Shown: positions 19,894 to 64,000 of the stretch, piece after piece
Layout: every line of letters begins with the position of its first letter
Numbering within the stretch: position 1 is the first letter of the stretch
Assembly (NCBI GenBank): GCA_032249135.1
Contig: JAVVGL010000003.1
Coordinates: forward strand, 62,893 to 126,892
Direction: 5' to 3'
Source: Candidatus Calescibacterium sp.
GTDB taxonomy: Bacteria; Calescibacteriota; Calescibacteriia; Calescibacteriales; Calescibacteriaceae
Length of the DNA: 64,000 nucleotides
Translations under genes and position numbers: made by a program
Notes under the pieces: model-generated
What the model saw: the letters and a program-made list of their open reading frames with translations, nothing else
What the model was told of the DNA's origin: nothing
Database searches by the model: none

Positions 19894-19998
19894 TTCTTAT
19901 GTACCATCAAAACTTTTCTGCTCGAGATGGTCGAGAAATTTTAACAACAGACCGATAAGTAAAATTTAATTTTGACAAATAAAATTGTAAAGGATGGA

Positions 19999-46738: not shown

Positions 46739-47992
46739 GTGAGAAAAATTCAAGTTTTGCTCGTATTAGGAGCTCAGTGGGGAGATGAAGGAAAAGGAAA
46801 AATAGTAGATTTCCTATCTAAATACTTTGATTACGCTGTAAGATTTCAGGGAGGACCTAATGCAGGTCATACAGTAGTATTTGACGGCAGAAAAATAGTT
46901 CTACATACAATACCATCGGGGATCTTAAGAGAAAATTGCTGCGCTGTCATGTCAAATGGAGTTCTCATAGATATAGATGTTCTCGAAAAGGAATTCAAAT
47001 CTCTAAAAGATTTAGGAGTAGATTTTAAAGGGAGACTTTTCATTTCAAACCTATGCCACATAATTTTACCCCTACACAAAAAATTGGACGCTCTTTTAGA
47101 TACCAGACAAAAAATAGGAACAACAAAAATGGGAATCGGTCCAGCAGTTGAGTTCAAAGTCGCAAGACACGGAATAAGAATAAAAGACCTTTTCTCGCAA
47201 GAAATTAAAACACTTCTGAAAGAAAACATTGAATATGCTCAAAAACTTATAAAGAGCTTCAATCATACCGATCACGAAAACGATATCAATTTTGAGGAAC
47301 TTTATAGCAAGCTTATGAAATTTGCAGAAAAAATACACGATTTCGTTACAGATACCCAAAAACTTCTCAGAAAAAAAATAGAAGAAGGAAAGAAAATTTT
47401 ACTTGAAGGAGCTCAAGGAATACTTTTAGATATTGATTTTGGAACCTATCCATTTGTTACCTCAACAAACACATCCCCGGGTGGTTCAATTTGCGGAACT
47501 GGGATTAATCCCAAAAGTATAGATGCTATTTTGGGAGTAGTAAAAGCTTATACAACACGGGTTGGCGGTGGTCCTTTCCCCTCTGAAATTAAAGACGAAA
47601 ATGAAGCTCAAACTTTGAGGGAACTCGGAGGTGAATACGGCTCCACAACAGGAAGACCAAGGAGAGTTGGATGGTTAGATATCCCACTTTTGAAATACTC
47701 AAAAAACATAGCTTACTTTGATTTTTTAGCTCTAACTAAAACAGATGTACTTGAAAAACTTGGAAAATCCTTTTATGTAGAAAAATATTTATACAGAGAT
47801 GTAGAAATATATGAACCAGATACAACAGTTGATATAAGCCAAGTAGTTCCCGTGCTTTGTGAGGTAAAAAGGAATTCTGAGATAAAAAATATAATTGAGG
47901 GTGAGCTCGGATTGAAAGTTGTGATAAATTCATTTGGACCAGACAGAAGTAAAATTGAAATTGATGAAAATTTCCTCTCACTCATCCAGTAG
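46739..47992 (+). CDS. purA: Adenylosuccinate synthetase
   Basis: GAQWGDEGKGK, QGGPNAGHT, EGAQG, GTYPFVTS, TTGRPRRVGW. Confidence 0.98.
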   Translation: MRKIQVLLVLGAQWGDEGKGKIVDFLSKYFDYAVRFQGGPNAGHTVVFDGRKIVLHTIPSGILRENCCAVMSNGVLIDIDVLEKEFKSLKDLGVDFKGRLFISNLCHIILPLHKKLDALLDTRQKIGTTKMGIGPAVEFKVARHGIRIKDLFSQEIKTLLKENIEYAQKLIKSFNHTDHENDINFEELYSKLMKFAEKIHDFVTDTQKLLRKKIEEGKKILLEGAQGILLDIDFGTYPFVTSTNTSPGGSICGTGINPKSIDAILGVVKAYTTRVGGGPFPSEIKDENEAQTLRELGGEYGSTTGRPRRVGWLDIPLLKYSKNIAYFDFLALTKTDVLEKLGKSFYVEKYLYRDVEIYEPDTTVDISQVVPVLCEVKRNSEIKNIIEGELGLKVVINSFGPDRSKIEIDENFLSLIQ

Positions 47993-50861
47993 GATACCCA
48001 AAATAACAAAAATAACAATTCTATCTTTTTTTTATTTTTTCTTCGTAATCCATCAACTTTCAGCTTATGCTGACTGCGAAGGTGAAAAATTCAAATTCAT
48101 AATAGTAAATAGTTTACACAATGCAAAAATAACTTGTGAAAACTTGAAAGATAAAAACAAAGAAAAAGAAAAAGTAAAAGAAACCATTTCCCCAGAATAT
48201 AGTTCAAGACTTCTTGATTTTATATGTAGTCTTGAAGAAAAATGCCTCAATACAATTCAAATCCAAAACATTTTAAAGAACTTAACATCCTCCAAAATCA
48301 TAAACAACTTCAAAATAGAGGACAAAGTGGTATCAATCTTTCCCAACATAATGATAAAGAAAGTAAATATTACACACGACAAAACGATGGAAAAACTCAA
48401 AGAATTGCAAGAGATAAAAACAAAAATCAAAAATGAGTTTGAAGGTAAATTTATATCAGATATAAAAACAGAAGAAAAAATATGCGAACAAATCCTAAAA
48501 GAAGAAGGACTGATTGATCAAAAATGCTCAATAGAACTCAAAAGTATAAGGTTTGAAGAATCAGAACTCAATATAAAAATATCAGGTAGATTTCAAAAAA
48601 TAAACGAAATCAAAATAAATGGAGTAAGTCAGGAGGAAAAAGAAGAATTATTGAGGAGGTTAGAGAAAAATTTTAAGGGTAAAGTGATGAAAGACAGCAA
48701 CATAAATTCAATTGAAAAAGAAGTAAAAGAATTTATGTATGAGCTTGGTTTTTACAAATTTGAAGTAAAATTAGAAAAAAAAGATAGTTCAATTGAAATA
48801 TCAATAAAACCAAATAAAAGGCACACAGTTTTTTTGAATATAGAGAGAGAAAAGGAGTTAGGAATAAATTCAAGAAAAATCCTTTCACAAATTCCGAAAC
48901 TTCAATTCATATCCGAAAGATCTATAAAGAACCTAATAGCAGAATCGCTCAGAAAAGATGAAATACCAGTAGATAGCGTAGAATACAAGGAAATTGATCT
49001 TGAAGACATAACAATTTTGAGTATAGATGTAAAACTTGCAAAACTCTATTATCTCACAGACTTCAAAATATATGGACTTGAAAAACTTGACGAAGACGAA
49101 ATAAAAAGAAAAATCGGAGTAAAAACCAAAGGCATAATAAATATTTTCTACATAAGATATGCATTATACACGGAAAAACAAATTGACAATTTTATATATG
49201 AAATCGTAGGATATGCTAAATCAAAAGGTTTTGACCAGTTCAGAATAGAAAAAGTTCAGAAAACAAAAATTCAAGATGAAATAAAAGTAGAGGTATATGC
49301 AAAAGAAGGAGAAAGAACTGTAATTTCAAAAATTCGGGCTCTGAATTTCCCAGAAAATGTTGAAAGTATTATTCCTAAAACTCCTATGTTCTATGACTTT
49401 GAAAAAATATCGGACCTAAAAGATAATCTACAAAAATATTTGGAAGATAAAGGTTATAGAAACTTCAAAATAGAAGTTATAGAAGAGAGGGAAACAAAAA
49501 TTTTGAAAAACATCTATCTTGTTTATGTTGGAGACGAACAAAAATCCGAGCTTGGTCAAATTTTTATATACACTGAAACCTCTCCCGAATACATAAAGAA
49601 AATCGCAGATATAAAAGAAGGTAAAACAATATCCGGCAAATATTTAGAAAGAATAGAAAATGAAATCATAAGGACTCAATATTTCAAACATTTTCAGATA
49701 AATCTCTCAGAATTAGGAGAATCGGAAATACACAACGAAAAAAGCAATAGCATATCTGAATTTACGAAAGATAACAAAAATAATAAAAACAAAATTCTCC
49801 AACCACCCCCAACAAAAAAGTATATGCTGACAATACAAGGATATGAGAGTGATCTAAATGAGGTAGAGGTATCAGGGGGATTATCAACCGTAGAAGGTGT
49901 AAGAGGGAGGATACAATACACAAGAAAAAATATATTGTTTTCAGGTATAGATTTCAGAACAAATTTCAGAACAGCTTACTGGATTTTTCCATTTGGAAGA
50001 GATTTCGGTATAACATTCCTTGGTGCAGGTGCAGAAATAACAAGAAGAAAACTTATTGGAGGTTTTGACTCATCTTTGCTTTTCTCTCCATTCTACACGA
50101 GTACATTCTTATTTACAATACAAAAACCTGTTTTCTCATCAGCGACTTTATCTCAATCTCACGAGAAAATAAAAATTTCAATCCCAATATCTTTTGAGCT
50201 AAGAGAACTTCTCTCGTGGGATACTAATGCCTTTAAGATAAGACCTGAAAACGCAGGTCTAAGAGAAATATTTGTAATATTCCCTTCAATATCTTTTACT
50301 CAAACATTCAGCAAGAGCAACCAATTCAAAATCGGAATAAAATCAGAATTCATAAAACCCATAAGTAAAAATTTCTCATCAAAGATTGAAATAGGAGGAG
50401 AGTATTACAACATAGGAAGATTCGGAGGATTCGGACTAGCAGCATCCATAGGCAGAATAATGCTATATGAAAATCTTTATGATGTCCCGATAGAAAGGAG
50501 ATTTTTTATAGGAGGGATGAACGGTCCGCGAGGATATCAGGAGATATCAATTTTCCCTCAAAAATTGTATTCAAAGGAATATTTGGAAGTAAATCCAGAA
50601 AAATTAAAAACGGCAGAAAATAAAATCGTGTTATTATCAGAAATATATGCACCAAAAATCTTTTTTGCAACACCTTACTTTTTCTTTGATTTGGGAAATG
50701 TATTTCATGACGGAGATAAATTAGAATTTTTCAAGGGAACTGGTCCAGGAATTATGTTAGATACACCTTTCGGAATTTTCAGGTTTGAATTAGGATATGG
50801 AATAGAAAGAAAAACATTTATAATTCACTTTTCAGTAGGTTTTATGCGAAACATAATTTAA
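47964..50861 (+). CDS. BamA/TamA (Omp85) family outer membrane protein with multiple POTRA-like domains
   Basis: Signal peptide (AYA-D), RFFIGG..GPRGY, FFDLGNV, TPFGIFRFELGY, C-terminal barrel. Confidence 0.8.
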   Translation: MKISSHSSSRIPKITKITILSFFYFFFVIHQLSAYADCEGEKFKFIIVNSLHNAKITCENLKDKNKEKEKVKETISPEYSSRLLDFICSLEEKCLNTIQIQNILKNLTSSKIINNFKIEDKVVSIFPNIMIKKVNITHDKTMEKLKELQEIKTKIKNEFEGKFISDIKTEEKICEQILKEEGLIDQKCSIELKSIRFEESELNIKISGRFQKINEIKINGVSQEEKEELLRRLEKNFKGKVMKDSNINSIEKEVKEFMYELGFYKFEVKLEKKDSSIEISIKPNKRHTVFLNIEREKELGINSRKILSQIPKLQFISERSIKNLIAESLRKDEIPVDSVEYKEIDLEDITILSIDVKLAKLYYLTDFKIYGLEKLDEDEIKRKIGVKTKGIINIFYIRYALYTEKQIDNFIYEIVGYAKSKGFDQFRIEKVQKTKIQDEIKVEVYAKEGERTVISKIRALNFPENVESIIPKTPMFYDFEKISDLKDNLQKYLEDKGYRNFKIEVIEERETKILKNIYLVYVGDEQKSELGQIFIYTETSPEYIKKIADIKEGKTISGKYLERIENEIIRTQYFKHFQINLSELGESEIHNEKSNSISEFTKDNKNNKNKILQPPPTKKYMLTIQGYESDLNEVEVSGGLSTVEGVRGRIQYTRKNILFSGIDFRTNFRTAYWIFPFGRDFGITFLGAGAEITRRKLIGGFDSSLLFSPFYTSTFLFTIQKPVFSSATLSQSHEKIKISIPISFELRELLSWDTNAFKIRPENAGLREIFVIFPSISFTQTFSKSNQFKIGIKSEFIKPISKNFSSKIEIGGEYYNIGRFGGFGLAASIGRIMLYENLYDVPIERRFFIGGMNGPRGYQEISIFPQKLYSKEYLEVNPEKLKTAENKIVLLSEIYAPKIFFATPYFFFDLGNVFHDGDKLEFFKGTGPGIMLDTPFGIFRFELGYGIERKTFIIHFSVGFMRNII

Positions 50862-50953: not shown

Positions 50954-51653
50954 ATGATAAGAAGAAAAGAGGTTAAAAGGGCTTTTCCTTCTATTAGTAA
51001 GCATTACGGTATTTTTCCGGGTTATCATCGGCAGGATGTAAGAAAAAATCTGCTCAAACAGGACTGTCAGGTTCCCAAAGCTCAACAGGGGGACAAGTAT
51101 ATCCAAGCACATCAACAACACAGCAAGTATATCTCAAGGCTCAACTTCCGCTAAAACTATCGGTGGGAGGAGTACTTTTGATACAGCTAATTCAATCATC
51201 CAGAGTAGTGATAGAGGATATGTTGTTGCTGGTAAAACTTGGAGTTTTGGAGCAGGTGGGGCTGATTTTTATGTAGTGAAGTTAGATGCTAATGGGAATG
51301 TATGTTTTTCTCAAAATATTACAAATTACTCTGTATCATCAACCGTACCTAGTTTTTCATCTCCATCAACGGTCGCAATTTCACAATCTCCTACGGTTAA
51401 TTCTGTATCTCCTACTGTAAGTTATGGGGGTTCTGTGTCAGATGTTTGTGCATTGGCATCAGCTCCGCATATATGTTCTGAAAGTCAAGATTGTGGTTTC
51501 GGCTCCGCAATCGCAAGCGGAGAAAAAGAAGATGTTAAATCTTATGGGTGTTCGGTAGGCAGAATTTTTTTAAGATTTCTCATTCCTGCTTCTACGCTAA
51601 TTGTTTATGGTTGGTTGAGAAAGAAGAGGAAGAAAAAGAAAGATGGAATTTGA
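50954..51653 (+). pseudogene. Degraded lipoprotein/surface protein with one beta-propeller-type repeat and GCS-TM-basic C-terminal tail
   Basis: Signal peptide and lipobox (SAGC) split across frames; KTIGG...SIIQSSDRGYVVAG.T.SFGAGGADFYVVKLDANGN; YGCSV+hydrophobic+RKKRKKKK. Confidence 0.6.
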
Positions 51654-51718: not shown

Positions 51719-52639
51719 TCACTTATGGTTTCTGAAAACTTTGACAAAGTCCTCCCAATTTTCTGATTTTATTACTTCTTTTTTTATCTTTTCCAACCTG
51801 TTTATATCATTTATTTTATCTAAAAGGTTTTTGATTTGTTTTGCCTTTGAGCTACCAAACTTAAACTTAATGTCAAGAAAGATTGCCTTTTTTAGACCTT
51901 CTTTAAGACCTTTTATAAGTCCCCTTCTTTCTCCTCTTTTTTCTCCCTCTCTTTCCCCCCATTTATAAAAAAGAGTTTTTCTTATATCTATTTGTATTGG
52001 CATAGGTTCTGCTTTTATCTCAACATCAAATAAACCGCCTAAAAAACTTATATCTTCCATATATTTTAAAAGTTCTTTTTTGTTTTTGACAATTTTTGAA
52101 ATCTTTCTTATTACTTTTTTGAATACTTCTTGTTTCTCTCTGTATTTTCCGGCTAAAACTCCCAAAATGACTTCTTCTGGCTTATTACTTCCTAAAAATT
52201 CATCAGGGTCTATTTTCTTCAAATCAACAACTTTGAATTTAAGGAATTTAAATTCTGACCTGAAATAAGAAGGAGTAGGATTTCCCTTACCCACAAATAA
52301 AACTATCTGTACAGGTTCTTTGCCGAACTTCTCTTCAATAACAACAGAATATATAAGCATTCTTTTGGGTAAAGTTTTATCTTGTTGAGCTTGGATTTCA
52401 ATATGGAAGATTTTATCACCGGCTTTAAAGAGCATATCTGGTCGGAGGGATTTGAGGAACTTTACTTCCTGAGTTATATCTTCAAGTTTTTCCTTTATTT
52501 TCTCACCAGTGGCTATTGAGATAATTTTTCCTACTGCCCCTGAGAAAATTTCTTTTAAGACAAGGTCAAACCTTCTTAATTCTCTTTTCCGCTTATATTT
52601 TCTTTTTTCTCTTTGACGTTCTCTTTTATTCTTCTTCAT
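51719..52639 (-). CDS. Rpn/YhgA-like PD-(D/E)XK nuclease (paralog 2)
   Basis: LRPDMLF, FHIEIQ, LPKRMLIY, GEREGEKRGERRG repeats. Confidence 0.8.
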   Translation of the reverse strand: MKKNKRERQREKRKYKRKRELRRFDLVLKEIFSGAVGKIISIATGEKIKEKLEDITQEVKFLKSLRPDMLFKAGDKIFHIEIQAQQDKTLPKRMLIYSVVIEEKFGKEPVQIVLFVGKGNPTPSYFRSEFKFLKFKVVDLKKIDPDEFLGSNKPEEVILGVLAGKYREKQEVFKKVIRKISKIVKNKKELLKYMEDISFLGGLFDVEIKAEPMPIQIDIRKTLFYKWGEREGEKRGERRGLIKGLKEGLKKAIFLDIKFKFGSSKAKQIKNLLDKINDINRLEKIKKEVIKSENWEDFVKVFRNHK

Positions 52640-52999: not shown

Positions 53000-54667
53000 A
53001 TGATAAGCCTTGAAAGCTTGATCGGTATAGCTGAGTTTCTTCTTCTTCCATTAATTTTCGGAGTTATATTCTACTTTCTTATTTCCAAAATATCAAGAAC
53101 TGAACTCAATTGCGTCAGTCCAACACCTGCGATAGAAAAATATGATAGAACGGAATACATCCCAGAAAAGCTAATTTTTCCTTTGAGCTATCTTTTGGTT
53201 TCAACAATAGGAATACCATCAATATTAAGCGTGTATTTTGGATTAAAGTTTGGGATCAGAGCACTACTGCCTTATATTGTCTTTGGATCAATCTTTATAT
53301 CTTTTATAACAAACTACATATCACTTTTTGTATCAGTAAAAAATGAAGGAAAAGACCTAATAAGCATTCTAAGAAAATACGCAGAAGAAAGAGCAGGAAA
53401 AATTTTTTTGATTTTCAGCATAATAAATTTGCTTGCACTGTTCTTCATATTAACCGATGCAGTCTCCGGAATTTTTTTAAAGTATCCTCAAATATTATAT
53501 TCTGTTGGAATATCAGTGTTCCTCTACGCAATACTTGGAATAATAAGGCAAACCTCTCAAACACTTTTAGGAATATCAATTATCCTATCTATTTTGGTAT
53601 TTGCAATTTCCTTTATTATGGGGCAAATTATCTATCATAATATCCCTTATCAAAATAAGATATTAGGTTCTGAAACGATACAAATTCTTATCATTCTCTA
53701 CATATTAACTATATCACTTATACCCTATTGGGGTGGAACCAAAATAAAATCAACTTCACATCTCATTTCGCTTGCAGCAGTAATATTAATAGGATGTATT
53801 GTGGCTATAAAAAATATTCTAAATACTCCTCAAATATTCACAGAAAAAATTTTAGAACCTATTACACTATATCAGAACGATGTATTTCCTTCAATTTTTG
53901 TTTTAGCAATATCAGCATCTTGGGGAGGATTTAACTCATTAATTCTCTCATCAATAGTTTCAAAGAGAATAAGATCATACTGCAATATACCAAGCATATC
54001 GTTTTTAGGTTCAATTGCGGCAATGCTCTTCGCAATAGCGGTAATAATAACAACTATACCTTTTGATAACCTATTTAAACAGCCATCAGCAGAAAAATTC
54101 ATTTTAAGTTTTATACCAGCACTTTTTGAATCGCTTCCTCAAAACCTCAGATATAAGGTAATAGAAGAGTTTTTAGCTTATTCTCTCATATCTTTTACAA
54201 TACTATCTCAGGAAACCATCGGTAGATCTTTAAGGTTGATATTAAAAGAAAGTTTGAGTTCAGGAAACGAAAAAAAGAAGGATAAAAAATCATCCAAATG
54301 GAATATAAACTTTATAAAAACGGAGACATTTACCTTCCTCATAGCAGTAGCTTTTTTCCTTATTGAGAGAGAAAAAATAGATAAAATATGGATCATATTC
54401 GGAACATCAGGGTATCTTGTTCTATTACTTTCCTTCATTACAAGCTATATATTTTTAAGAAAGGAAAAATCTTCTCTCTTTATCAGGGCACTCAAATTAT
54501 TCTCCATTCTTCTTTTTATCTTCTCATCAATTGTAATATTTTCTTTTTTGATGGTAGGAATAAAAAATTATGAAGGACTATCTGTACTATTTCCGGCAAT
54601 AACTCTAATCTTAACCTTGTATGTTATATCAGTTATAGCGAGAGCGATTCGTATGAAGGAAAGCTGA
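53000..54667 (+). CDS. Divergent carbon starvation CstA-family transporter
   Basis: TPA....D..EYIP motif, many TM helices, SVKNEGK, GGFNSL. Confidence 0.6.
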   Translation: MISLESLIGIAEFLLLPLIFGVIFYFLISKISRTELNCVSPTPAIEKYDRTEYIPEKLIFPLSYLLVSTIGIPSILSVYFGLKFGIRALLPYIVFGSIFISFITNYISLFVSVKNEGKDLISILRKYAEERAGKIFLIFSIINLLALFFILTDAVSGIFLKYPQILYSVGISVFLYAILGIIRQTSQTLLGISIILSILVFAISFIMGQIIYHNIPYQNKILGSETIQILIILYILTISLIPYWGGTKIKSTSHLISLAAVILIGCIVAIKNILNTPQIFTEKILEPITLYQNDVFPSIFVLAISASWGGFNSLILSSIVSKRIRSYCNIPSISFLGSIAAMLFAIAVIITTIPFDNLFKQPSAEKFILSFIPALFESLPQNLRYKVIEEFLAYSLISFTILSQETIGRSLRLILKESLSSGNEKKKDKKSSKWNINFIKTETFTFLIAVAFFLIEREKIDKIWIIFGTSGYLVLLLSFITSYIFLRKEKSSLFIRALKLFSILLFIFSSIVIFSFLMVGIKNYEGLSVLFPAITLILTLYVISVIARAIRMKES

Positions 54668-54701: not shown

Positions 54702-55202
54702 TTAAAAACTATAACCTAAATATAAGCCCATAGCAGGGGTTACTAAAAAAGGTACCGCCTTACTTATATTTCTATTTTCCTTATCTTTGCTGTGAAATGC
54801 TTTCAATCCCAAAAAAATGTCAGCCGTAAATTTATTATCTTTTCTGATTCCTTTGGAACCTAATGTCAGCACTAATATTGGAAATTCCCTTTCCACAGCA
54901 GCAGCTACCCCTTGATAGATATAAACTCCTTCAAACTCTTTTAGCAAATACTCCCTAATTCCTACCTCAAATTCTACTGGAATTATAAAAAACACATTAT
55001 TTAACTCAAAATTTAAAGAAAGCTTACCTAATGCTCTTAATTCAAAATTTATACCAGGAGTGGGAACAATCAAAACCCCTCCATGCCCTGCCCCTTCAAT
55101 AGCAAAAGATAAAGGATTAACAGATATGGTATATTTGTACTCAGTTTCTGAACCTCTATCATGAACTTCTGAAATTAACGCAAATATTAAAATTAGAAGC
55201 AT
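54702..55202 (-). CDS. Small outer-membrane beta-barrel (DUF3575-like), array paralog 7
   Basis: YTISVNP, PGINFE, GIREYL, C-terminal GLYLGYSF. Confidence 0.7.
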   Translation of the reverse strand: MLLILIFALISEVHDRGSETEYKYTISVNPLSFAIEGAGHGGVLIVPTPGINFELRALGKLSLNFELNNVFFIIPVEFEVGIREYLLKEFEGVYIYQGVAAAVEREFPILVLTLGSKGIRKDNKFTADIFLGLKAFHSKDKENRNISKAVPFLVTPAMGLYLGYSF

Positions 55203-55288
55203 AAATTATCACTCTCAACTCAAACCACACTTAATTTTTTCACCAAATATATCCCAAAATTAAAATAGCCTTGTTTCTTATACAAAAC

Positions 55289-55816
55289 TTACCATGTATA
55301 ACCCAAATATACTCCTAAATCTCGCCAAATCCCAAAAGGACCGAGTTTAACATCGCCAAAAAATCCATATGCTGCTCTCAAACCTAAAAATGGGTCTATG
55401 GTAAAACCACTTCTGAAAACATATTTATAACCACCTACCAATATCAAATTAGGTATATACCTTGCAATCTTTTTATATCTTTCTTCTGGCAAGAATAGTA
55501 GATTAATCCATCCCCACGCTATTCCTTGATAAAAATAAAATCCTCTAAATTCTTTTAGCAAATATTCCCTAATTCCTACCTCTATTTCAGTAGGAATAGG
55601 AAATGGAAATATTACATTAATTTCAAAGTTAAATGACCAATTACCTCCTCCTTTCGCCTCAAAATTTATTCCAGGATTTGGTAAAATTATTCCCCCCGCA
55701 TGACCTGCACCCAAGATAAAAAAAGCTAAGGGATTAACACCAAGGGAGTATTTATGTTCCAATTCTTTTTCTGAAGTTTCAGATATCAGTAAAAGTAGTA
55801 AAAAACCTAATAGCAT
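55289..55816 (-). CDS. Small outer-membrane beta-barrel, array paralog 6
   Basis: YSLGVNP, PGINFE, GIREYL, GFTIDPF, GVYLGYTW. Confidence 0.7.
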   Translation of the reverse strand: MLLGFLLLLLISETSEKELEHKYSLGVNPLAFFILGAGHAGGIILPNPGINFEAKGGGNWSFNFEINVIFPFPIPTEIEVGIREYLLKEFRGFYFYQGIAWGWINLLFLPEERYKKIARYIPNLILVGGYKYVFRSGFTIDPFLGLRAAYGFFGDVKLGPFGIWRDLGVYLGYTW

Positions 55817-55922
55817 ATTCGTCATAGGAACCCTTTTCAAGTATGTTTATATTCTATTTTTGTGTAGGTTTTCTAAATTTTTACCGTAAACTCACAAAAT
55901 TACCACACAAATATTAGAAATT

Positions 55923-56979
55923 TTACTGGCATATATATGCTCCCACTTGGAAGCAAAACGAAGTTAAATAAGCTTTAGTTGCTTGTATTGCCTTGTTTCT
56001 GACATCCCAGTAAACATTTTTTTGAATACTATCTGGACCGCCACAATCGCCAGGCCAATCACCCTGATCACAAGCACTCATACAATCTCTGTCCGGGTTT
56101 CCCGCCGAATCCTTATTTAGCATGCAATGAGTCATAATCTTCTTTTTAACATTACATGGAGGATAGTCATTTAATGTGAAACCAGAAAACCACCTCGTAC
56201 AAGCAAAATCAGCAGCCGTTGACCATCCTCCTGCCCCGTATAAGCCAGAAAAGAGTCCCCACCCTTCAGCCTCTGTTCCAGAAGGTATATAGGTATTCGG
56301 AAATTTTACTTCCACATTATACTCAGCACATTCCCAATCCAAGCAAACAATAGCCCAGCTAACACACTGCACTCTCTTACAGTTTGGAACAAATATGGAA
56401 TTAGAATGGGACCAAAAATCTTGAACGGGCTGAATCAACTCACCTATAGTGCCATAATCAGTATATCCATAGTATGCAATAGGGTTAGTTCTGAACACAC
56501 AATAACAGCTGTTCTGGGATGATTTTCTGATTAACCTCTTATCAGCGACTGAACATCCTATTCCTCCTCCTCCACCTACTCCATATGATGGAGGTGGATA
56601 TGTTGGAGGAGGTGTAGGAGATGGAGATGTAGGAACACATGAACAGGATACTGGATTTGATTTAACCGGATCTGTTAACACCTGAGCTTTCCCATAGCAA
56701 CCACTAAAATTGCTATTATCACAATGGTAAGAAGAGTCATTTGAGAAGAGACAATCAGCTACATTTGCACCATTTGCTACTGAAGCAGAATCATATGTCC
56801 TACACCAAACTAAACCGCTCACCAAAGGAGGACCGCTATCCCAATTATTATACCTAAAGCCATATTTATATAGTTTAGGATAAAAACTCTGAAGCTGACT
56901 AATGGCTGTCTCTGTGATCTCCTCATGTATAGGCTCTCCTATGAAACACGGAAACTACCATAGATTTTATCCCATACAT
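55923..56979 (-). pseudogene. HET-C/VWA7-like C-terminal cassette 4 without RHS core, frameshifted near 5' end
   Basis: MYGIKSMVVSVFH (ATG 56979), then shifted frame GEPIHEEIT...ADC...HCDN...QDFWSHS...HCMLNKD. Confidence 0.65.
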
Positions 56980-56982
56980 AAT

Positions 56983-57509
56983 TTACCAACTATAACCCAA
57001 ATATAATCCTAAGATTGGAAATAGAAAAAAAGGCATCCAACTTAACGGTCTTTTTTCTCTTTCTTTTACATAAACTATTCTTAATTCCAAAAATGGATCT
57101 ATTGTAAAACCACCTTGATTATCAATATATTTATAGCCTGTACCCAATACTAAATATGGATAATTGACTTTGGTTAAGGTCTCAATATCGAGCTTATCTA
57201 TCCATCCCAACTTTCCACCTTGATAAAGATAAACACCTTGAAATCTTTCTCTCCCTTGTAAATATTCTCTAAATCCGAACCCAAATTCTACTGGAAGTAT
57301 AATCAGAGCACTGTTTAGAGTGAAATTTAATGAAAAATTATTTTTAACTCCAATCTCAAAATTCATTCCCAAAGATGAAAAAATAATTTTTTTTTCTCCC
57401 TAATATCTATAATAACGGAAGCAGGACAAATTCCAAATGTATATCTGAAATTTTTGATTTCTGAAACATTAAATGATAAGATAAACAAAAATAAAAAATT
57501 ACCCAACAT
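56983..57509 (-). pseudogene. Small outer-membrane beta-barrel, paralog 5, frameshifted at A9 tract
   Basis: ATG 57509 MLGNFLFLF..RYTFGICP; one extra A at 57387-57395 restores frame to GMNFE...GLYLGYSW. Confidence 0.75.
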
Positions 57510-57530
57510 ATGTAAAACTATTTTACTATC

Positions 57531-58013
57531 TCAAAAAGCATAACCCAAGTATAATCCTAAAGCCGGTAAAAATCCAATAGGTTCAATACCAAAAGATCCT
57601 CCACCGTACATTAGTCTTAATCCCAAAAATGGATCTACCACAAAACCTCTCTTTGAAATACTTTTGTATCCAAGTGTTAATATCAAACATGGTATATATT
57701 TTGCAACTTCCCTATATTTTTTATCTGGTCCCCAAATATTTAACCATCCCCAGGCTAAACCCTGGTAAAGATAAAAACCTTCTAATGCTTTATCTTCTTC
57801 TAAGTATTCCCTTATTCCTACTTCACCTTCAAGAGGCTCAATTAACAATTTGTTATTTACTTCGAAATTCAAAGAAAAGTTTCCTTTAAGTCCTAATTCA
57901 AAATTTATTCCAGGAGTTGGGAGAAAAAGGAAGGGTGTGATAAAAGAAAAAGGATTAATTTCCAATGTGTATTGTTTTGATACTAAAAAAAATATAATAA
58001 AGGCTAATAGCAT
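57531..58013 (-). CDS. Small outer-membrane beta-barrel, paralog 4
   Basis: YTLEINP, PGINFE, GIREYL, DPFLGLR, GLYLGYAF. Confidence 0.7.
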   Translation of the reverse strand: MLLAFIIFFLVSKQYTLEINPFSFITPFLFLPTPGINFELGLKGNFSLNFEVNNKLLIEPLEGEVGIREYLEEDKALEGFYLYQGLAWGWLNIWGPDKKYREVAKYIPCLILTLGYKSISKRGFVVDPFLGLRLMYGGGSFGIEPIGFLPALGLYLGYAF

Positions 58014-59326
58014 ATGCTTGCGTCTACAAAGCAGAAAGTTAATAGATAATGTTTGGTTGAAGCTACAGCCATTTCCTTCGCATCATTATGAGCAAATTTC
58101 TGAACATTTCCTGCTCCTTTAATACTACATTCACTATCACAACTTGACCAACAATAATCCCCTCCCGGTTCATCTTTATTCAATATACAATGAGCTTTAC
58201 ATGGAGGCCAAGAACAGGCAAGATCTTCTAACCAACTCCAACCACCTGAATCATATTTCCCAGATTCAAGTCCTTTATTACTTGCCTCAACAGGTGTAGG
58301 TAGTGAGGTATATGGCCAATTGTTCTGTATAGGATAATCATATACTGGACACAATCCACTCGGATCAATAGAACAAGGAACTATCATCACAAGGACTGGT
58401 TCAACAAAAAACGCTGTTGAGTGTGACCAAAAATCCTGCACGGAATGAAGCAATCTACCTAATTTTTCAAAATCCATTCCTTCGCTTCCACTACCATATT
58501 GGAATGTTCCAAACGAACAAGAACAATATGAGGGAGATTTCTTTTTTAACCTTTGATTTGCAACTGAACATGCAGGTAATAATCCTTCTATTAATTCTCC
58601 TAGAAATTTGCCTAATTCACTCCCATAACCGTGCCAATTCCATGTATCACTTCCTTCCTCATCATAACAGTAACAAGTTATCAGTCCCGAAGCAACAGGC
58701 TTTTCTAACTTACTAGCGTTGTCGTAACAACCTCCAAAATTATTATTATCACAATGGAAAGAAGAATCGGTTTCATAAAGACAATCCGCTATATTTACAC
58801 CATGAGCAACTCTATTTTCATAGCTCCTGCATCGTAGTATATCAAATGCATATGGTCCTTCCCATCCACATTCATCACATCTTGAACCATGCTCACATAT
58901 TTTACGTGATGGGAATTGACCACATGAAAAAGTTTCATTAATCGCCCTCTCGGTTATCTCTTCATGGATGGGCTTTCCTTCGTGCCAGGTGCCAATAAAT
59001 GTTTTAACAACTTGCAGCTCTGTTTTAAACATTCCCACCGGATCAACTAAATCATGCGGCGAATTATTCGCATATGCATACAAGTTCAAGTCAGATACGG
59101 GGTCAGGTTGCAAATATCTTCCTACTCTCCAATCATAATATCTCCTCACATTATAATACAAACCTGTTTCTATATCCCTATACATCCCATACAGCCTAAA
59201 TGGAATGTAGTTGCTTACAACACCTCTTTCATACAAAGGCTCCCCAAATGGACCAAATTCTGCTCTCCATACCTCCTTTCCTGCCTCATCATATATAACT
59301 CTCGGTATCCCTCTCCAATTCATCAT
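58004..59326 (-). CDS. Orphan RHS core-end + Cys-rich HET-C/VWA7-like domain (cassette 3)
   Basis: ETGLYYNVRRYYD..GRYLQPDP, NSP..VDPVG; HEEIT, HCDN, LGRLLHSVQDFWSHS, LNKD. Confidence 0.85.
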   Translation of the reverse strand: MMNWRGIPRVIYDEAGKEVWRAEFGPFGEPLYERGVVSNYIPFRLYGMYRDIETGLYYNVRRYYDWRVGRYLQPDPVSDLNLYAYANNSPHDLVDPVGMFKTELQVVKTFIGTWHEGKPIHEEITERAINETFSCGQFPSRKICEHGSRCDECGWEGPYAFDILRCRSYENRVAHGVNIADCLYETDSSFHCDNNNFGGCYDNASKLEKPVASGLITCYCYDEEGSDTWNWHGYGSELGKFLGELIEGLLPACSVANQRLKKKSPSYCSCSFGTFQYGSGSEGMDFEKLGRLLHSVQDFWSHSTAFFVEPVLVMIVPCSIDPSGLCPVYDYPIQNNWPYTSLPTPVEASNKGLESGKYDSGGWSWLEDLACSWPPCKAHCILNKDEPGGDYCWSSCDSECSIKGAGNVQKFAHNDAKEMAVASTKHYLLTFCFVDASICY

Positions 59327-59352
59327 AGCAGCTCAGTCCTTCCGCTTGAAAC

Positions 59353-59919
59353 TTACCAGCTATAACCTAAATATAAACCTAGGGCTGGCAGAATTCCAAA
59401 CTTAAAGGACCCAAATGAGAAATTTCCTATAAGAAAACCTCCTCCATATATTATCCTTAAACCTGAAAACGGATCTATTGTAAAACCTTTCTTTGAGATA
59501 GATTTGTTTCCCAAAGTTAATATTAAATTTGGCACATACTTTGCAAGCTTTCTATAACGATTTTTCTCTGAATTTTCTTCAAATTCTGCAGAAGTTGCAA
59601 TATTTATCCATCCCCATGTTAATCCTTGATAAAGATAGGTACCTCTAAATCTTTCTTTTCCCAAATATTCCCTAATTCCTAACTCTACCTCGACAGGAAA
59701 TATAAACCACACATTATTTAACTCAAAATTCAACGAAAGCCTATCTTTAACTTTCATCTCAAAATTTATTCCAGGAATTGGTAGAAAGAATTCGGGAGCA
59801 TGTCCACCACCTGTGACGAAAGGTAAAGGATTAATCTCCAGTGTATATTTATATTTATATCCTAGATTCTCTTCTAAGGTCTCTGAAAACAGAAAAATTA
59901 CAAAAAATACTAATAACAT
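59353..59919 (-). CDS. Small outer-membrane beta-barrel, paralog 3
   Basis: YTLEINP, PGINFE, GIREYL, GFTIDPF, GLYLGYSW. Confidence 0.7.
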   Translation of the reverse strand: MLLVFFVIFLFSETLEENLGYKYKYTLEINPLPFVTGGGHAPEFFLPIPGINFEMKVKDRLSLNFELNNVWFIFPVEVELGIREYLGKERFRGTYLYQGLTWGWINIATSAEFEENSEKNRYRKLAKYVPNLILTLGNKSISKKGFTIDPFSGLRIIYGGGFLIGNFSFGSFKFGILPALGLYLGYSW

Positions 59920-61397
59920 AAATTTGGAGCTTCTTGACAAAAAGAAAATAAATAATGCACAGTTGATGCTAATGCTCTATTTCTGGCATCCCAGAAAGCA
60001 TACCTTTGTACATTATCGTCACCTCCACAGTCGCCCGGCCAATCGCCTTGATCGCAAGCACCCATGCAATCTCTATCGGGTCCCACATTATCATCTTTAT
60101 TTAACATACAATGCGTAAAGACTTGTGCCTGAAGATCACACGGAGGCCAACGACTACCAATGAAAGATATCGCCTTTTGACATGAAATATCATCTGAAGC
60201 CGACCAGCTATATTCCCACTTACTTCCACCATATAGACCGGATGTAAGGTAATAAAAGTGAAAAAGAGAATCTGGTATTTTATGCAGGATGTAATACGAA
60301 ACTACCTCATACTCCGCACATTCCCAGTCAAGACAAATTCCTAAAAATGATGATGCACATATTCTGTTCCCACATATTGAAACAAATACTGCATTAGAAT
60401 GGGCCCAGAAGTCTTGAACGGGATGAAGATACCTTCCCAAAGTTTCATAATCTTCTGGTACTCTAAAAGAGCACTGCAAAATCGGTCGTAAAGTCTTTTC
60501 CTTTAATCTTTGGGTTGAAACAGAATACTCTCTTTCATTATCTTCTCTGGGTCCGATTGGTGATCGGTATGGCGGTGTTTGTGAGCCTTTAGAACAACCC
60601 CTTTTCTCGCTTTCTCCAGGTCCACTTGGTGGTGGGTATGACGAGGGTTGTGAGTCTTTGCCAGAAGAACAACCTCTTATCTCGCCTTTTCCGGGTCCGC
60701 CCCCATCTGGTGGAGGGTATGTTGGTGGTGGGTTTGACGGTGGTTTTGGTGGTGGGTTTGGTAGTGGTTGGTCGCAATTAGCAACACACACACATGCTAC
60801 CACTCCCCTTGATTTAGGGAATTCTACCCTTTCTGTCACCTTACGACATACTTCAAAATTATCATTGTCACAGTGGTATGAAGAATCGTCTTCATAAAAA
60901 CAGTCTGCCCTGTTCGCACCTTGTGCTAATTTATTTTTATATCCTCTACACTGTGCAACTGAATAAAGCCACGGACTATCTTTAAAACTCCAATAATCTT
61001 CCGCTGGTCCAAACTGCCTGAGAATTGAATATCCAAGATTGTTAACGGCATCTTCTGTTATTTTTTCGTGATGAGGATAACCAACATGATGAGGGAAACC
61101 TAGCGGTCGCATAGTAGTTTTAAACATCCCCAAAGGATCAACTACATCATACGGTGAATTACTTACATACGCATACAAATTTAAGTCAGAAACAGGGTCA
61201 GGTTGCAGATACCTCCCTACCCTCCAATCATAATACCTCCTCGCATTATAATACAATCCTGTTTCAATATCCTTATACATCCCATACAGCCTAAACGGAA
61301 TGTAGTTGCTTACAACACCTCTTTCATACAATGGCTCCCCAAATGGTCCAAACTCTGCTCCACAGTACTTTTCTACCGATGTATTAACAAGATACAT
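59910..61397 (-). CDS. Orphan RHS core-end + Cys-rich HET-C/VWA7-like domain (cassette 2)
   Basis: RHS core with VDPLG; HEKIT, HCDN, LGRYLHPVQDFWAHS, LNKD; AGGAGGA RBS. Confidence 0.85.
   Translation of the reverse strand: MYLVNTSVEKYCGAEFGPFGEPLYERGVVSNYIPFRLYGMYKDIETGLYYNARRYYDWRVGRYLQPDPVSDLNLYAYVSNSPYDVVDPLGMFKTTMRPLGFPHHVGYPHHEKITEDAVNNLGYSILRQFGPAEDYWSFKDSPWLYSVAQCRGYKNKLAQGANRADCFYEDDSSYHCDNDNFEVCRKVTERVEFPKSRGVVACVCVANCDQPLPNPPPKPPSNPPPTYPPPDGGGPGKGEIRGCSSGKDSQPSSYPPPSGPGESEKRGCSKGSQTPPYRSPIGPREDNEREYSVSTQRLKEKTLRPILQCSFRVPEDYETLGRYLHPVQDFWAHSNAVFVSICGNRICASSFLGICLDWECAEYEVVSYYILHKIPDSLFHFYYLTSGLYGGSKWEYSWSASDDISCQKAISFIGSRWPPCDLQAQVFTHCMLNKDDNVGPDRDCMGACDQGDWPGDCGGDDNVQRYAFWDARNRALASTVHYLFSFCQEAPNLCY
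61183..61337 (-). repeat. 155-bp RHS-core segment identical to 63748-63902 (diverged third copy near 59085-59245)
   Basis: Base-by-base comparison by eye. Confidence 0.9.
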
Positions 61398-61420
61398 AGC
61401 TCAGTCCTCCTATTTAAAAT

Positions 61421-61957
61421 TTACCAACTATAGCCTAAATATAAACCTAAAACTGATGATAAATATGCAAAAGGGCTAATATTATACATAAAAGGAGAAC
61501 GACCACTCATTATTCTTATACCAAAAAAAGGATCTAAAGTTAATCGAATCTTTCCGATAAGTTTGTATCCAACGGTCAATATAAAGTGTGGATACTTTCC
61601 TGCAATTTCCCAATCTCTTGTTTTTAATCCCCCTACTGCTATCCCTTGATAAAAATATAAACCTTGGAAATCTTTCTTTTTTCTTAAATATTCTCTAATG
61701 CCTACTTCAATTTCAACTGGATAAACAAAAAACAAATTATTTATTTCAAAATTGACTGAGAATATATTCGGAAACTTTATCTCAAAATTTATCGCAGGAG
61801 TTGGTAAATATTCAGTTAAAATAAGTGGTGGTTCTTTCTCCTCAACGAAAATCATAAAAGAAAAAGGGTTAATGGATATAGTATATTTGTATCTTCCCTC
61901 TTGCTCTTCAGCTGAAAACTCCGAAATTAAAGTAAACAATAAAAACCACAAAAACAT
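61421..61957 (-). CDS. Small outer-membrane beta-barrel, paralog 2
   Basis: YTISINP, PAINFE, GIREYL, DPFFG, GLYLGYSW. Confidence 0.7.
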   Translation of the reverse strand: MFLWFLLFTLISEFSAEEQEGRYKYTISINPFSFMIFVEEKEPPLILTEYLPTPAINFEIKFPNIFSVNFEINNLFFVYPVEIEVGIREYLRKKKDFQGLYFYQGIAVGGLKTRDWEIAGKYPHFILTVGYKLIGKIRLTLDPFFGIRIMSGRSPFMYNISPFAYLSSVLGLYLGYSW

Positions 61958-61968
61958 AAAGTTATTAT

Positions 61969-62553
61969 CTAATAGTTCCAACTATACCCCAAATAAACAC
62001 CTATAGCTGGGAAAAAATCAACTTTCCCAAATCCTAATCCATACCCTAACCCATATACTATCCTTGAACCTAAAAATGGGTCTATTGTAAAACCACTTCC
62101 TGAAATATATTTATACCCACATAACAATATCAAATTTGGTACATATACATATTTCGTTGTTCTCTCAAAATTTTCTACACGAGTATAAAAATTTACAATT
62201 CCCCAACTTAATCCCTGATAAATATACAATCCATAAAACTTTTTGCCTTCTTGCAGATATTCCCTAATACCCAACTCCAACTCAGCTGGAATTATGCTTC
62301 CGAAAAAGGTCATATTATTGATTTCAAAATTTATTGATACCTTCCCTATAATTTTTACTTCAAAGTTTATCCCAGGACTTGGAACAACTACTAATTTTCT
62401 TCCGGGATGAAGTTGTAAGATGGAAAAACCGCTATCAGAAAGCATAAAAGGTAAAACAGAAGTTGGATTAATAGATACAGTATATTTGTATTTTTCTCCT
62501 AAATCACCAGTTGATTCCATTATTAAGACAAAAACTAAAAATCCTGCGGGCAT
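61969..62553 (-). CDS. Small outer-membrane beta-barrel, paralog 1
   Basis: YTVSINP, PGINFE, GIREYL, GFTIDPF, GVYLGYSWNY; alternative GTG start at 62568. Confidence 0.7.
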   Translation of the reverse strand: MPAGFLVFVLIMESTGDLGEKYKYTVSINPTSVLPFMLSDSGFSILQLHPGRKLVVVPSPGINFEVKIIGKVSINFEINNMTFFGSIIPAELELGIREYLQEGKKFYGLYIYQGLSWGIVNFYTRVENFERTTKYVYVPNLILLCGYKYISGSGFTIDPFLGSRIVYGLGYGLGFGKVDFFPAIGVYLGYSWNY

Positions 62554-62600
62554 AGAGCTAATCCTCACTCTTTTCTAAAAAATTACGAAAATCTAAAAAT

Positions 62601-64000
62601 TTAGTCATTAAGCCTCAAACATAAGTCACCTCCACTCCTACAAAAAATATCTAAGTAGTGTTTGGTTGAATCTTTAGCTCTACTTTCTACCTCAAAATAA
62701 GCGTCCCTTTGAACACCCTTGGCACACGGATCAGTTGTTGTACGATCCAAACCTCCCCACGAATCTTTATTCAATACGCAATGAGCATCACAACGAGGGG
62801 GAAATCCTTTAGGATTAGCAGTACTAAATGGTCCCTTTCTACACAGGAAATCTTCAATATCGGTCCAGCCATCAAATATAAATACACCAGATATTATTCC
62901 TCTACTTTTTGCATCGTTTTCGTTTGGTAAAGTAGTTTCATCCCACCTTACTTCTCTATAATATTCCGTGCAGCCTCCGCTTACATACCTTCTACAGCCT
63001 GAGACATATATAGCGGTTGAATGGGCCCAGAAGTCTTGAATGGGATGGAGCAATCTTCCCAATTTTTCATAATCCATCTGCTCCCGAGGTATATCGCTTG
63101 AAGGGATTCGTGCTCCAGGAGGAAAGCCACGCATTGTAACTCTGAACCAAACACTAAATGTACCAAAGCTACAGCTGCAAAGATCAAATGATCTTTTCTG
63201 TAACCTTGGTATTACTGAACATCCTCTACCCCCACCTCCAGTTTCAGTTTCACGTTTTGTTCCAATAATGGGGAGAATAATAGGGCTAATGTCAGCGCAA
63301 CTACAGTTTATTAAATCATAAATAGCTGGCCTAGATATTTCCCATGCTATATCATAACAGCCAGCAAAATCACTATTATCACAATAGAAATAAGATTTAG
63401 TTGCATAAAGGCAATCAGCTCTATTTGTACCCTGAGCCACTGTATTTGCATATGTTCTACATCTCAGACAAAATTGGTCATAAGCAAAACAAACCTCCGG
63501 TCCCATATCCCAATTTTCTACTCTATCTTTATGGCGGCAGATGCTTCTTTTTGCTCCATCAGTCGTAAAACACCAAAAAGCTTCATTGATTGCATTTTCA
63601 GTTATACGTTCATGTATTGCATGCCCCTCGTGCCAACTATCAGTTGGCGGAGACCAAACGGTTTTGGTGACCCTCATTGTAGTTTGAAACATCCCTACCG
63701 GATCAACCAAATAATAAGGTGAATTATTCACATACGCATACAAGTTCAAGTCAGAAACAGGGTCAGGTTGCAGATACCTCCCTACCCTCCAATCATAATA
63801 CCTCCTCGCATTATAATACAATCCTGTTTCAATATCCTTATACATCCCATACAGCCTAAACGGAATGTAGTTGCTTACAACACCTCTTTCATACAATGGC
63901 TCTCCAAACGGACCAAATTCTCCTCTCCATATCTCCTTTTCAAATTCATCATATATAACCCTCGGCACACCTCTCCAATCCGATATTATATATCCCTCCT
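62601..64000 (-). CDS. RHS repeat protein, 3' part (5' end beyond window), with Cys-rich HET-C/VWA7-like C-terminal domain 1
   Basis: Frame open to window edge (EGYIISDWRGVPRVIYD); RHS core ending NSPYYLVDPVG; HERIT, LGRLLHPIQDFWAHS, LNKD. Confidence 0.88.
   Translation of the reverse strand, partial: EGYIISDWRGVPRVIYDEFEKEIWRGEFGPFGEPLYERGVVSNYIPFRLYGMYKDIETGLYYNARRYYDWRVGRYLQPDPVSDLNLYAYVNNSPYYLVDPVGMFQTTMRVTKTVWSPPTDSWHEGHAIHERITENAINEAFWCFTTDGAKRSICRHKDRVENWDMGPEVCFAYDQFCLRCRTYANTVAQGTNRADCLYATKSYFYCDNSDFAGCYDIAWEISRPAIYDLINCSCADISPIILPIIGTKRETETGGGGRGCSVIPRLQKRSFDLCSCSFGTFSVWFRVTMRGFPPGARIPSSDIPREQMDYEKLGRLLHPIQDFWAHSTAIYVSGCRRYVSGGCTEYYREVRWDETTLPNENDAKSRGIISGVFIFDGWTDIEDFLCRKGPFSTANPKGFPPRCDAHCVLNKDSWGGLDRTTTDPCAKGVQRDAYFEVESRAKDSTKHYLDIFCRSGGDLCLRLND
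63748..63902 (-). repeat. 155-bp RHS-core segment identical to 61183-61337
   Basis: Base-by-base comparison by eye. Confidence 0.9.

Follow-up and report, generated by a model that had tools for sequence, protein, structure and literature searches.

The minus strand at the far end of a 64,000-nucleotide (nt) stretch of Candidatus Calescibacterium DNA (contig JAVVGL010000003.1; the whole stretch is referred to below as the window) is best read as the distal part of a polymorphic-toxin locus of the Rhs type, whose host would be a Calescibacterium-like diderm of low GC content. The array spans positions 54702-64000, and within it seven small paralogous genes (minus strand, 54702-62568; 43-62% pairwise identity) alternate with four homologous, Cys-rich Rhs C-terminal toxin modules (CTs). 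We rate the locus as an Rhs orphan toxin/immunity array with a Het-C-like toxin and an unusual immunity family, predicted to be of the outer membrane protein (OMP) type. In its full form, this reading takes the seven small proteins as cognate and orphan immunity proteins that are integral, eight-stranded beta-barrels of the outer membrane and bind the toxin through their loops; we give this combination an even chance of being correct.

The toxin modules comprise the end of the main Rhs gene (CT7), two complete orphan cassettes (CT5 and CT4), and one 5'-truncated fragment (CT2). With the barrels numbered B1 to B7, the order on the minus strand, read 5' to 3', is CT7, B7, B6, CT5, B5, CT4, B4, B3, CT2, B2, B1 (Table 1). 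A preliminary description of this DNA had noted seven paralogous open reading frames (ORFs) in this place. This was borne out when a hidden Markov model (HMM) of the barrel family was run against the 995 six-frame stop-to-stop segments of at least 30 amino acids (aa) in the window: exactly seven segments matched (E 1e-41 to 1e-72), and no further barrel copy was found among the segments of the 64 kb. The observation of seven paralogues is far beyond chance. The HMM of the CT family had exactly four matches among the same segments (E 1e-132 to 1e-212) and none elsewhere in the 64 kb. The paralogue sizes given in the preliminary description (160-200 aa) held for six complete ORFs but not for B3, which was listed as 129 aa (56983-57372) and is not a short paralogue but a frameshifted full-length copy lying across two frames. 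Its N-terminal part runs from an ATG at 57509 to a stop at 57363, its C-terminal part occupies the frame 56983-57399, and the two frames meet at or near a run of nine A (57387-57395); the copy may be a pseudogene, or the split may stem from an error in the assembly or from slippage at this site.

Consistent with the immunity-gene position proposed for the small proteins at the outset, each of the four CTs is directly followed, on the same strand, by a barrel gene. We found no ORF other than barrels between the toxin modules, and the modules are separated by gaps of 23-107 nt or overlap, so that there is no room for another immunity gene. At CT4/B4 (58004-58013) and CT5/B5 (59910-59919), toxin and barrel share an identical 10-nt stop/start overlap, in which the barrel ATG lies 7 nt before the toxin stop, the toxin ends in ..CY before its stop, and the first barrel residues are MLL, an arrangement suggestive of translational coupling. 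The corresponding site at CT7/B7 (~62601-62625) has diverged to ..LCLRLND before the stop, and B7 starts further downstream; where toxin and barrel do not overlap, the gaps are ~32-48 nt and 82-107 nt, according to which start is taken. The barrels outnumber the toxins by seven to four, with B2 kept beside the decayed CT2, and B6, B3, and B1 lacking a toxin of their own. This excess points to orphan immunity genes rather than to receptor or display partners. We consider it probable that the barrels are the immunity proteins, and would read B6, B3, and B1 as orphan immunity genes and the other barrels as cognate.

The layout resembles that of Rhs/CdiA orphan arrays, in which a main gene is followed by cassettes of 'core-end + CT + immunity'. 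As in those arrays, the core end is repeated, here three times as a 298-nt direct DNA repeat (D1), a small same-strand gene follows each CT after a short gap or overlap, and a truncated CT remnant and extra genes in the immunity position are present. The D1 copies have 80-88% identity to the reference copy at 59022-59319 in CT4, with the CT5 copy (61117-61414) at 80%; exchange of orphan cassettes into the main gene usually relies on such core-end repeats. At the protein level, the Rhs core end (TIGR03696, cutoff 32.5 bits) was found in three of the four CT ORFs (60.0-63.6 bits), and CT2 had no match to this model. The CT2 frame is open from a stop at 56955-56957 and contains neither the core end nor a start codon before the domain. 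When compared with PDB sequences, a profile of the toxin family matched the core ends of Rhs and Tc proteins of known structure and, beyond these, only chance antibody chains (E at least 0.045). Two features set the array apart from Rhs/CdiA orphan arrays, which hold unrelated CT/immunity pairs with cytoplasmic, periplasmic, or lipoprotein immunity proteins: one toxin family and one partner family occur here, and the partner is predicted to be an integral outer membrane barrel.

The seven barrel sequences aligned with 46-51% identity to B1 and 31 invariant columns, and all of the conserved segments listed in the preliminary description (YTxxINP, PGINFE, FSLNFE, ExGIREYL, GxYxYQG, LILxxGYK, GFTIDPF, and GLYLGYSW/F) were recovered in this seven-way alignment. 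So were the very short hydrophobic N-termini: in all seven proteins, a stretch of 10-13 hydrophobic residues runs up to S, SE, or ES. B1 and B4 have no basic residue or n-region, their first residues being MLL; in B1 an in-frame stop directly precedes the ATG (protein start MLLILIF), and B4 has no upstream ATG, GTG, or TTG. At the other end, the C-terminal residue was F, W, or Y in 32 of 33 aligned members, following ..L-G-L-Y-L-G-Y-S, and the consensus L-G-L-Y-L-G-Y-S-W places hydrophobic residues at positions 1, 3, 5, 7, and 9 from the end. In the C-terminal beta-signal of OMPs, the last residue is aromatic, and positions 3, 5, 7, and 9 from the end are hydrophobic. Two members (P0019 and P0028) carry a short Cys-containing extension past ..LGYS and are still F-terminal, and P0004 has a non-aromatic, four-residue C-terminal extension. 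Cysteines number 0-1 in 31 of the 33 barrels and two in the other two, none of them at the lipobox position. We rejected a lipoprotein, as no Cys follows the hydrophobic stretch, and a PagL- or PagP-like enzyme, as no invariant His/Ser pair occurs among 30 invariant columns (judged by the catalytic residues as generally known).

An AlphaFold2 model of B5, built from the 33-sequence alignment, reached a mean predicted local distance difference test (pLDDT) of 73.8 and a predicted template modelling score (pTM) of 0.70, with the strand blocks at pLDDT 78-93. It consists of an N-terminal helix (residues 3-18) and eight antiparallel strands of 6-16 residues (32-37, 57-65, 68-77, 81-92, 100-110, 138-148, 153-165, and 179-194), with low-confidence connections at 42-51, ~111-137, and ~166-178. 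The roughly eight-stranded fold proposed in the preliminary description is therefore also what the model predicts. Its best Foldseek matches in the PDB were OmpA-short (9fzc, E 8.9e-3, template modelling (TM) scores 0.43/0.49), OmpW (2mhl, 2f1t), FadL, Ail (2n2l, 3qra), and designed transmembrane barrels. In strands b1-b5 and b7, residues of one parity are hydrophobic (mean Kyte-Doolittle 1.4-3.5) and variable (entropy 1.09-1.31), and those of the other parity are Gly, charged, or otherwise polar, with stronger conservation (entropy 0.00-0.80); the polar face of b4, P-E-E-G-R-Y, had zero entropy. Judged from the alignment, a conserved, polar, Gly-rich face combined with a variable hydrophobic face would be the pattern of a membrane barrel and the inverse of that of a soluble barrel.

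Conserved strands alternating with variable connections, as first described, were also evident from column entropies: means were 0.43-1.03 in the eight strands and 1.6-2.15 in the connections, with the short L2 as the exception (1.18). Across the 33 sequences, length varied only in L1 (b1-b2, 14-31 residues), L3 (b5-b6, 6-32), and L4 (b7-b8, 6-19). The other connections were near constant (b2-b3, T1, 2 residues; b4-b5, T2, 5-7; b6-b7, T3, 4-5; b3-b4, 3-6). Both termini of an OMP are periplasmic, and the opposite end of the barrel faces outside. By this topology rule, the long, indel-rich loops L1, L3, and L4, which lie opposite the termini, would be on the outer face. The claim of hypervariable loops was thus upheld, in that the indels all fall in three loops at one end, but sequence variability occurs on both faces: among pairs below 60% identity, the share of differing columns was 0.74 in the turns, 0.87 in the long loops, and 0.34 in the strands. 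L1 also carries a semi-conserved G-x-G-H (B5 residues 44-47), with the His present in 48% of the 33 sequences; that this His might reach a metal site of the toxin is pure speculation.

The polar conserved face, the aromatic C-terminus, and the loop indels at one end fit a barrel of the type inserted by the beta-barrel assembly machinery (BAM). With the OmpA N-domain, OmpW, OmpX/Ail, and DUF3575 of Bacteroidota, the family shares eight predicted antiparallel strands, a C-terminal aromatic residue, and long loops at one end with short turns at the other. It differs from them in having no sequence membership, TM-scores of 0.4-0.5, a short signal, and a position in a toxin array. On balance, we think it likely that the proteins are outer membrane barrels.

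The four CTs are homologous to one another (36-47% pairwise identity over the toxin part), and their alignment contains 71 invariant columns, 16 of which are Cys. Each toxin part has 21-23 Cys, compared with 0-1 in the seven barrels. The conserved motifs appear in the order H..HE(x)ITE, F-H-C-D-N, and H-x3-D-x3-H (LHPVQDFWSHS), followed by a conserved HCxLNKD block. The H..HE block was invariant in 12 of 12 CT family members, HCD was present in 11 of 12 (CT7 has Y for the His of FHCDN, and its close public homologue P0063 has H at this HxD position), and HxxxDxxxH in 10 of the 11 members covering the segment, the exception being CT2. CT4 carries all three. In CT2 (55926-56954), the first His of HxxxDxxxH is replaced by Q and the His of a WHxG block by F; the CT7 (toxin domain 62604-63689) and CT2 alleles, with their replaced motif residues, are possibly inactive.

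This order of conserved residues (H, E, HxD, HxxxDxxxH) matches that of Tox-HET-C, for which Zhang et al. 2012 (PMC3482391) give the motifs 'H, [DE], HxD, HxxxDxxxH, Nxx[DE], [ST]G' and a predicted fold like that of zinc phospholipase C and S1-P1 nuclease. The CTs differ from Tox-HET-C in their 21-23 Cys and in a low-confidence model that is not all-alpha, and no confident position could be assigned to Nxx[DE] or [ST]G. On the HxxxDxxxH segment, 11 of 12 CT members had sub-threshold Pfam matches to VWA7_N, which we read as the animal Het-C domain on the strength of a remark on an MHC (major histocompatibility complex) class III cell-surface protein in Zhang et al. (PMC3482391). Likewise, a protein-language-model Atlas placed the toxin with VWA7_N, 'HET-C-related', and CinY clusters at 0.93, with a low recognition value (2038). 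The motifs therefore suggest that the CT is a Het-C-like metal-dependent hydrolase, an assignment at the level of motifs and not one of established family membership.

From these elements, a mechanism can be proposed. The barrel would be exported by its minimal N-terminal hydrophobic signal and inserted by BAM through the C-terminal aromatic beta-signal, and its interior would be polar and conserved. The toxin, being Cys-rich and paired with an exported partner, would not act in the cytoplasm but in the periplasm or at or across the outer membrane, with membrane lipid as its most likely target; of the two activities linked to the Het-C fold, such a site of action would favour phospholipase over nuclease. 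A barrel of the matching allele would capture or block the toxin through its variable outer loops, extra barrels would widen protection against the alleles of neighbours, and the 298-nt core-end repeats would let orphan cassettes recombine into the main gene. The resulting proposal, that an outer membrane barrel confers allele-specific immunity to an Rhs-delivered, disulfide-rich, Het-C-like, lipid-directed toxin by neutralising it at the surface or in the outer membrane, is tentative, and we place it somewhat short of an even chance.

If this is correct, polymorphic toxin systems would gain their first OMP-type class of immunity protein, and Tox-HET-C its first immunity partner. The target of this Rhs toxin would then be the envelope, reached from outside, and not the cytoplasm; neutralisation would take place in or on the outer membrane; and the site of action of a Het-C-like toxin would be indicated, with lipid favoured over nucleic acid as the substrate. 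The array would further offer a compact system for asking how loop variation in a small OMP encodes specificity, and it comes from a deep-branching, uncultivated, thermophilic (hot-spring) lineage. To our knowledge, the immunity proteins of Rhs, contact-dependent inhibition (CDI), and type VI secretion system (T6SS) toxins are cytoplasmic, periplasmic, lipid-anchored, or located in the inner membrane. The available part of PMC12419801 gives BamE-like, jelly-roll, and four-transmembrane immunity proteins and no OMP barrel, and that of Zhang et al. 2012 (PMC3482391) has '-' as the immunity entry for Tox-HET-C in its table. In the literature searched, which left most subscription journals outside, none of the papers listed had a title or abstract opening that described an OMP-barrel immunity protein, and 'Tox-HET-C' occurred in that literature only in Zhang et al. 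2012.

The nearest functional analogy that we found is BSAP-1 of Bacteroides fragilis, whose toxin gene lies beside the gene for a non-targeted variant of an outer membrane protein (Roelofs et al. 2016, PMC4999547). Protection is tied there to an outer membrane protein variant encoded beside the toxin gene, as it would be here. In the BSAP-1 system, however, this outer membrane protein is present as a single copy and takes the place of the receptor without neutralising the toxin, which is a pore-former of the membrane attack complex/perforin (MACPF) type, whereas seven tandem paralogues lie beside Rhs-borne toxins here.

Several observations weigh against outer membrane immunity barrels paired with a Het-C-like toxin. 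The N-terminal signal of the barrels is atypically short and often lacks a basic n-region, in contrast to the BamA-like protein of the same window, which has a classical signal with a basic n-region. None of the seven barrels matched a Pfam, NCBIfam, or PADLOC family above cutoff; the family profile had no match to PDB sequences at E <= 10; and OMP_b-brl_2 appeared below threshold in one of 41 members (P0051, the most divergent; E 0.0043, 17.6 bits against a cutoff of 27). Membership of DUF3575 (PF12099), raised in the preliminary description, was not supported, with no Pfam match in the seven paralogues (E <= 1) or in the 41 members (E <= 10); an Atlas feature search placed the barrels with unnamed and DUF3575 clusters at 0.96, the 156-167 features in common being fewer than the guide value of 170. 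Foldseek returned no PDB match to the B5 model at E <= 0.001, the best OMPs lying at E 0.009-0.04 and soluble avidins following closely. In strands b6 and b8, hydrophobic alternation is weak, the inward or outward orientation of the strand faces is read from conservation, and the short turns vary in sequence (entropy 1.8-2.2), not in length. For the toxin, the best VWA7_N match reached 22.1 bits against a cutoff of 27.5 over ~18-20 residues, and the CT members had no match to Het-C (PF07217) in the Pfam scan. The AlphaFold2 model of the toxin domain was poor (pLDDT 63.8) and mixed alpha/beta, and Foldseek gave 12 PDB matches to it at E <= 10, the best with E 3.4. The linkage, too, has its difficulties: the four CT/barrel pairs (six pairwise values, too few for a real test) showed no positive trend in divergence, and the most similar barrels, B4 and B5 (62%), adjoin CTs that are 38% identical. 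Finally, in the set of species-representative genomes, one of 97 pattern matches to the barrel family was confirmed, at a poor contig end. When the CT4 toxin domain and B4 residues 13-160 were modelled as a complex, the score was 0.00 in two runs without controls, a result that weighs neither way.

The shortness of the N-terminus and its lack of an n-region of the typical kind, the absence of sequence matches to any OMP family, and the avidin-family barrels among the Foldseek matches (probability 0.97-1.00, TMt 0.55-0.64) would all suit immunity proteins of a different kind, namely soluble or inner-membrane-tethered periplasmic barrels of the avidin or lipocalin type, which would keep an uncleaved short N-terminal segment and neutralise the toxin within that compartment. 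Moreover, the immunity proteins known for periplasmic effectors are soluble or lipid-anchored. We nevertheless consider this unlikely. The variable hydrophobic face and conserved, charged, Gly-rich face are the reverse of what a soluble barrel would have, strands of 9-16 residues are long for the avidin type, and a stretch of 10-13 hydrophobic residues is too short for a membrane-spanning helical anchor. The alternating hydrophobic residues before the aromatic C-terminus shared by 32 of the 33 members fit the BAM beta-signal, and the top fold matches were OmpA, OmpW, and Ail. The proposal of an outer membrane barrel gained from the modelled strands, the C-terminal aromatic residue, and the indel-rich loops at one end, and the face pattern would fit it; the Foldseek matches to OMPs were weak. 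Should the barrels turn out to be periplasmic, only the immunity family would be new, and the Rhs orphan array itself would be an ordinary one.

An outer membrane location with variable outer loops would also suit recognition, and the barrels could then be an allele-specific toxin receptor, an anchor, a release or display partner, or a non-targeted receptor replacement as in Bacteroidales BSAP-1. The BSAP-1 arrangement is a precedent for the last of these (PMC4999547), and Zhang et al. (PMC3482391) give, in the part available, no immunity family for Tox-HET-C. Such roles are rather less probable still than periplasmic barrels. Seven barrels for four toxins, some of them beside a truncated toxin or none, form an orphan-immunity pattern; additional receptors would make the cell more susceptible, target replacement calls for a single replaced locus and not for a tandem set, and the array would be left without any other candidate immunity ORF. 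Barrels of eight strands also lack a lumen that could serve for export. Small OMP families with variable loops are common, and together with the missing co-variation in the four CT/barrel pairs this leaves some room for an ordinary variable surface-protein family (adhesin or antigenic variation) that is interleaved with the CTs through a shared proneness to recombination, with no functional link. We regard this as very improbable, given the strict alternation with the CTs, the identical 10-nt overlap seen twice, the absence of a copy elsewhere in the 64 kb, and the fact that the barrel and CT families are both very narrow and each have a Candidatus Calescibacterium member.

Returning to the preferred reading of outer membrane immunity barrels, the distribution of the two families shows how narrow they are. 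A word-index search with the barrel family gave 30 proteins, all unnamed or 'hypothetical', and, among 1.84 billion, an exhaustive search recovered 34 representatives at E <= 0.001; none of these exceeds 194 aa, and no fusion was seen among them. The CT family numbered 10 proteins, seven of which have a YD-shell Pfam domain. No full-length Rhs protein (771-2200 aa) with this CT was found among 1403 candidates, which is weak evidence. Named sources of the barrel and CT homologues were metagenome-assembled genomes of Candidatus Calescibacterium. The confirmed match in the species-representative genomes (AWOA01000046.1, 336-665) is at the start of a contig of Candidatus Calescibacterium nevadense with ambiguous bases; it is partial, 34% identical over the first 105 barrel residues, and no ORF of at least 60 aa is present there. 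The GC content of the window (0.28-0.39) agrees with the 35% given for a Calescamantes-like population (PMC4791363).

Coordinates of the array genes are collected in Table 1. The main Rhs gene extends past the window end, and its YD-repeat shell lies outside the window. The probable B7 start, ATG 62553, coincides with the end coordinate given in the preliminary description. Near-identical public proteins of B7 begin at MPAGF, and B6 as listed overlaps the end of B7 by 13 nt.

Table 1 Genes and gene fragments of the Rhs array, in minus-strand order from the window end
Feature	Position (nt) and length	Strand	Evidence and remarks
CT7, 3' end of main Rhs gene, Rhs core end and Cys-rich toxin domain	62601..64000	-	TIGR03696 Rhs_assc_core 60.0 bits; CT HMM E 1.5e-212; 21 Cys in toxin part
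B7, first gene after CT7	61969-62568, 199 aa	-	family HMM E 1.3e-67; probable start ATG 62553
B6, second barrel after CT7, read as orphan	61421-61981, 186 aa	-	family HMM E 1.6e-64
CT5, orphan cassette, Rhs core end and toxin domain	59910..61397	-	TIGR03696 63.6 bits; 22 Cys
B5	59353-59940, 195 aa; 188 aa from probable start ATG 59919	-	family HMM E 1.1e-71
CT4, orphan cassette, Rhs core end and toxin domain	58004..59326	-	TIGR03696 62.2 bits; 23 Cys
B4	57531-58013, 160 aa	-	family HMM E 1.3e-63
B3, interrupted	56983..57509	-	N-terminal part with family-like N-terminus; C-terminal part HMM E 4.1e-41
CT2, 5'-truncated toxin fragment	55923..56954	-	CT HMM E 3.1e-132, profile positions 140-456 only
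B2, first gene after CT2	55289-55840, 183 aa	-	family HMM E 1.6e-65
B1, last array gene, read as orphan	54702-55202, 166 aa	-	family HMM E 7.9e-64

The surrounding 54 kb are ordinary chromosome with housekeeping genes, and a gene for a CstA-like membrane protein (53000-54667) is convergent with the array end. Genes for a BamA/Omp85-like protein, a SurA-like chaperone, SecA, and a KdsB-like cytidylyltransferase also lie in the window and indicate that the host is a diderm with the machinery needed for OMPs. The BamA/Omp85-like protein (47934-50861, plus strand, 975 aa) lies ~4 kb from the array; its match to the BamA model is weak (63.6 bits against a cutoff of 297), which fits a deep-branching lineage. 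Promoter-like sites (31, against 33.7 expected from shuffled sequence) and terminator-like sites (1, against 6.3) were not above expectation. Two 306-aa paralogues with 64% identity are encoded at 51719-52639 (minus strand) and 19972-20892 (plus strand); one copy is ~2 kb from the end of the Rhs array, and one of the two has a weak match, below cutoff, to the Rpn family of recombination-promoting nucleases/putative transposases (TIGR01784, 23.7 bits). Between the BamA-like and Rpn-like genes lies a 125-aa ORF (51276-51653, plus strand) with no Pfam or PADLOC family, whose product is rich in Ser, Pro, and Cys and ends in a C-terminal hydrophobic stretch and a poly-Lys tail.

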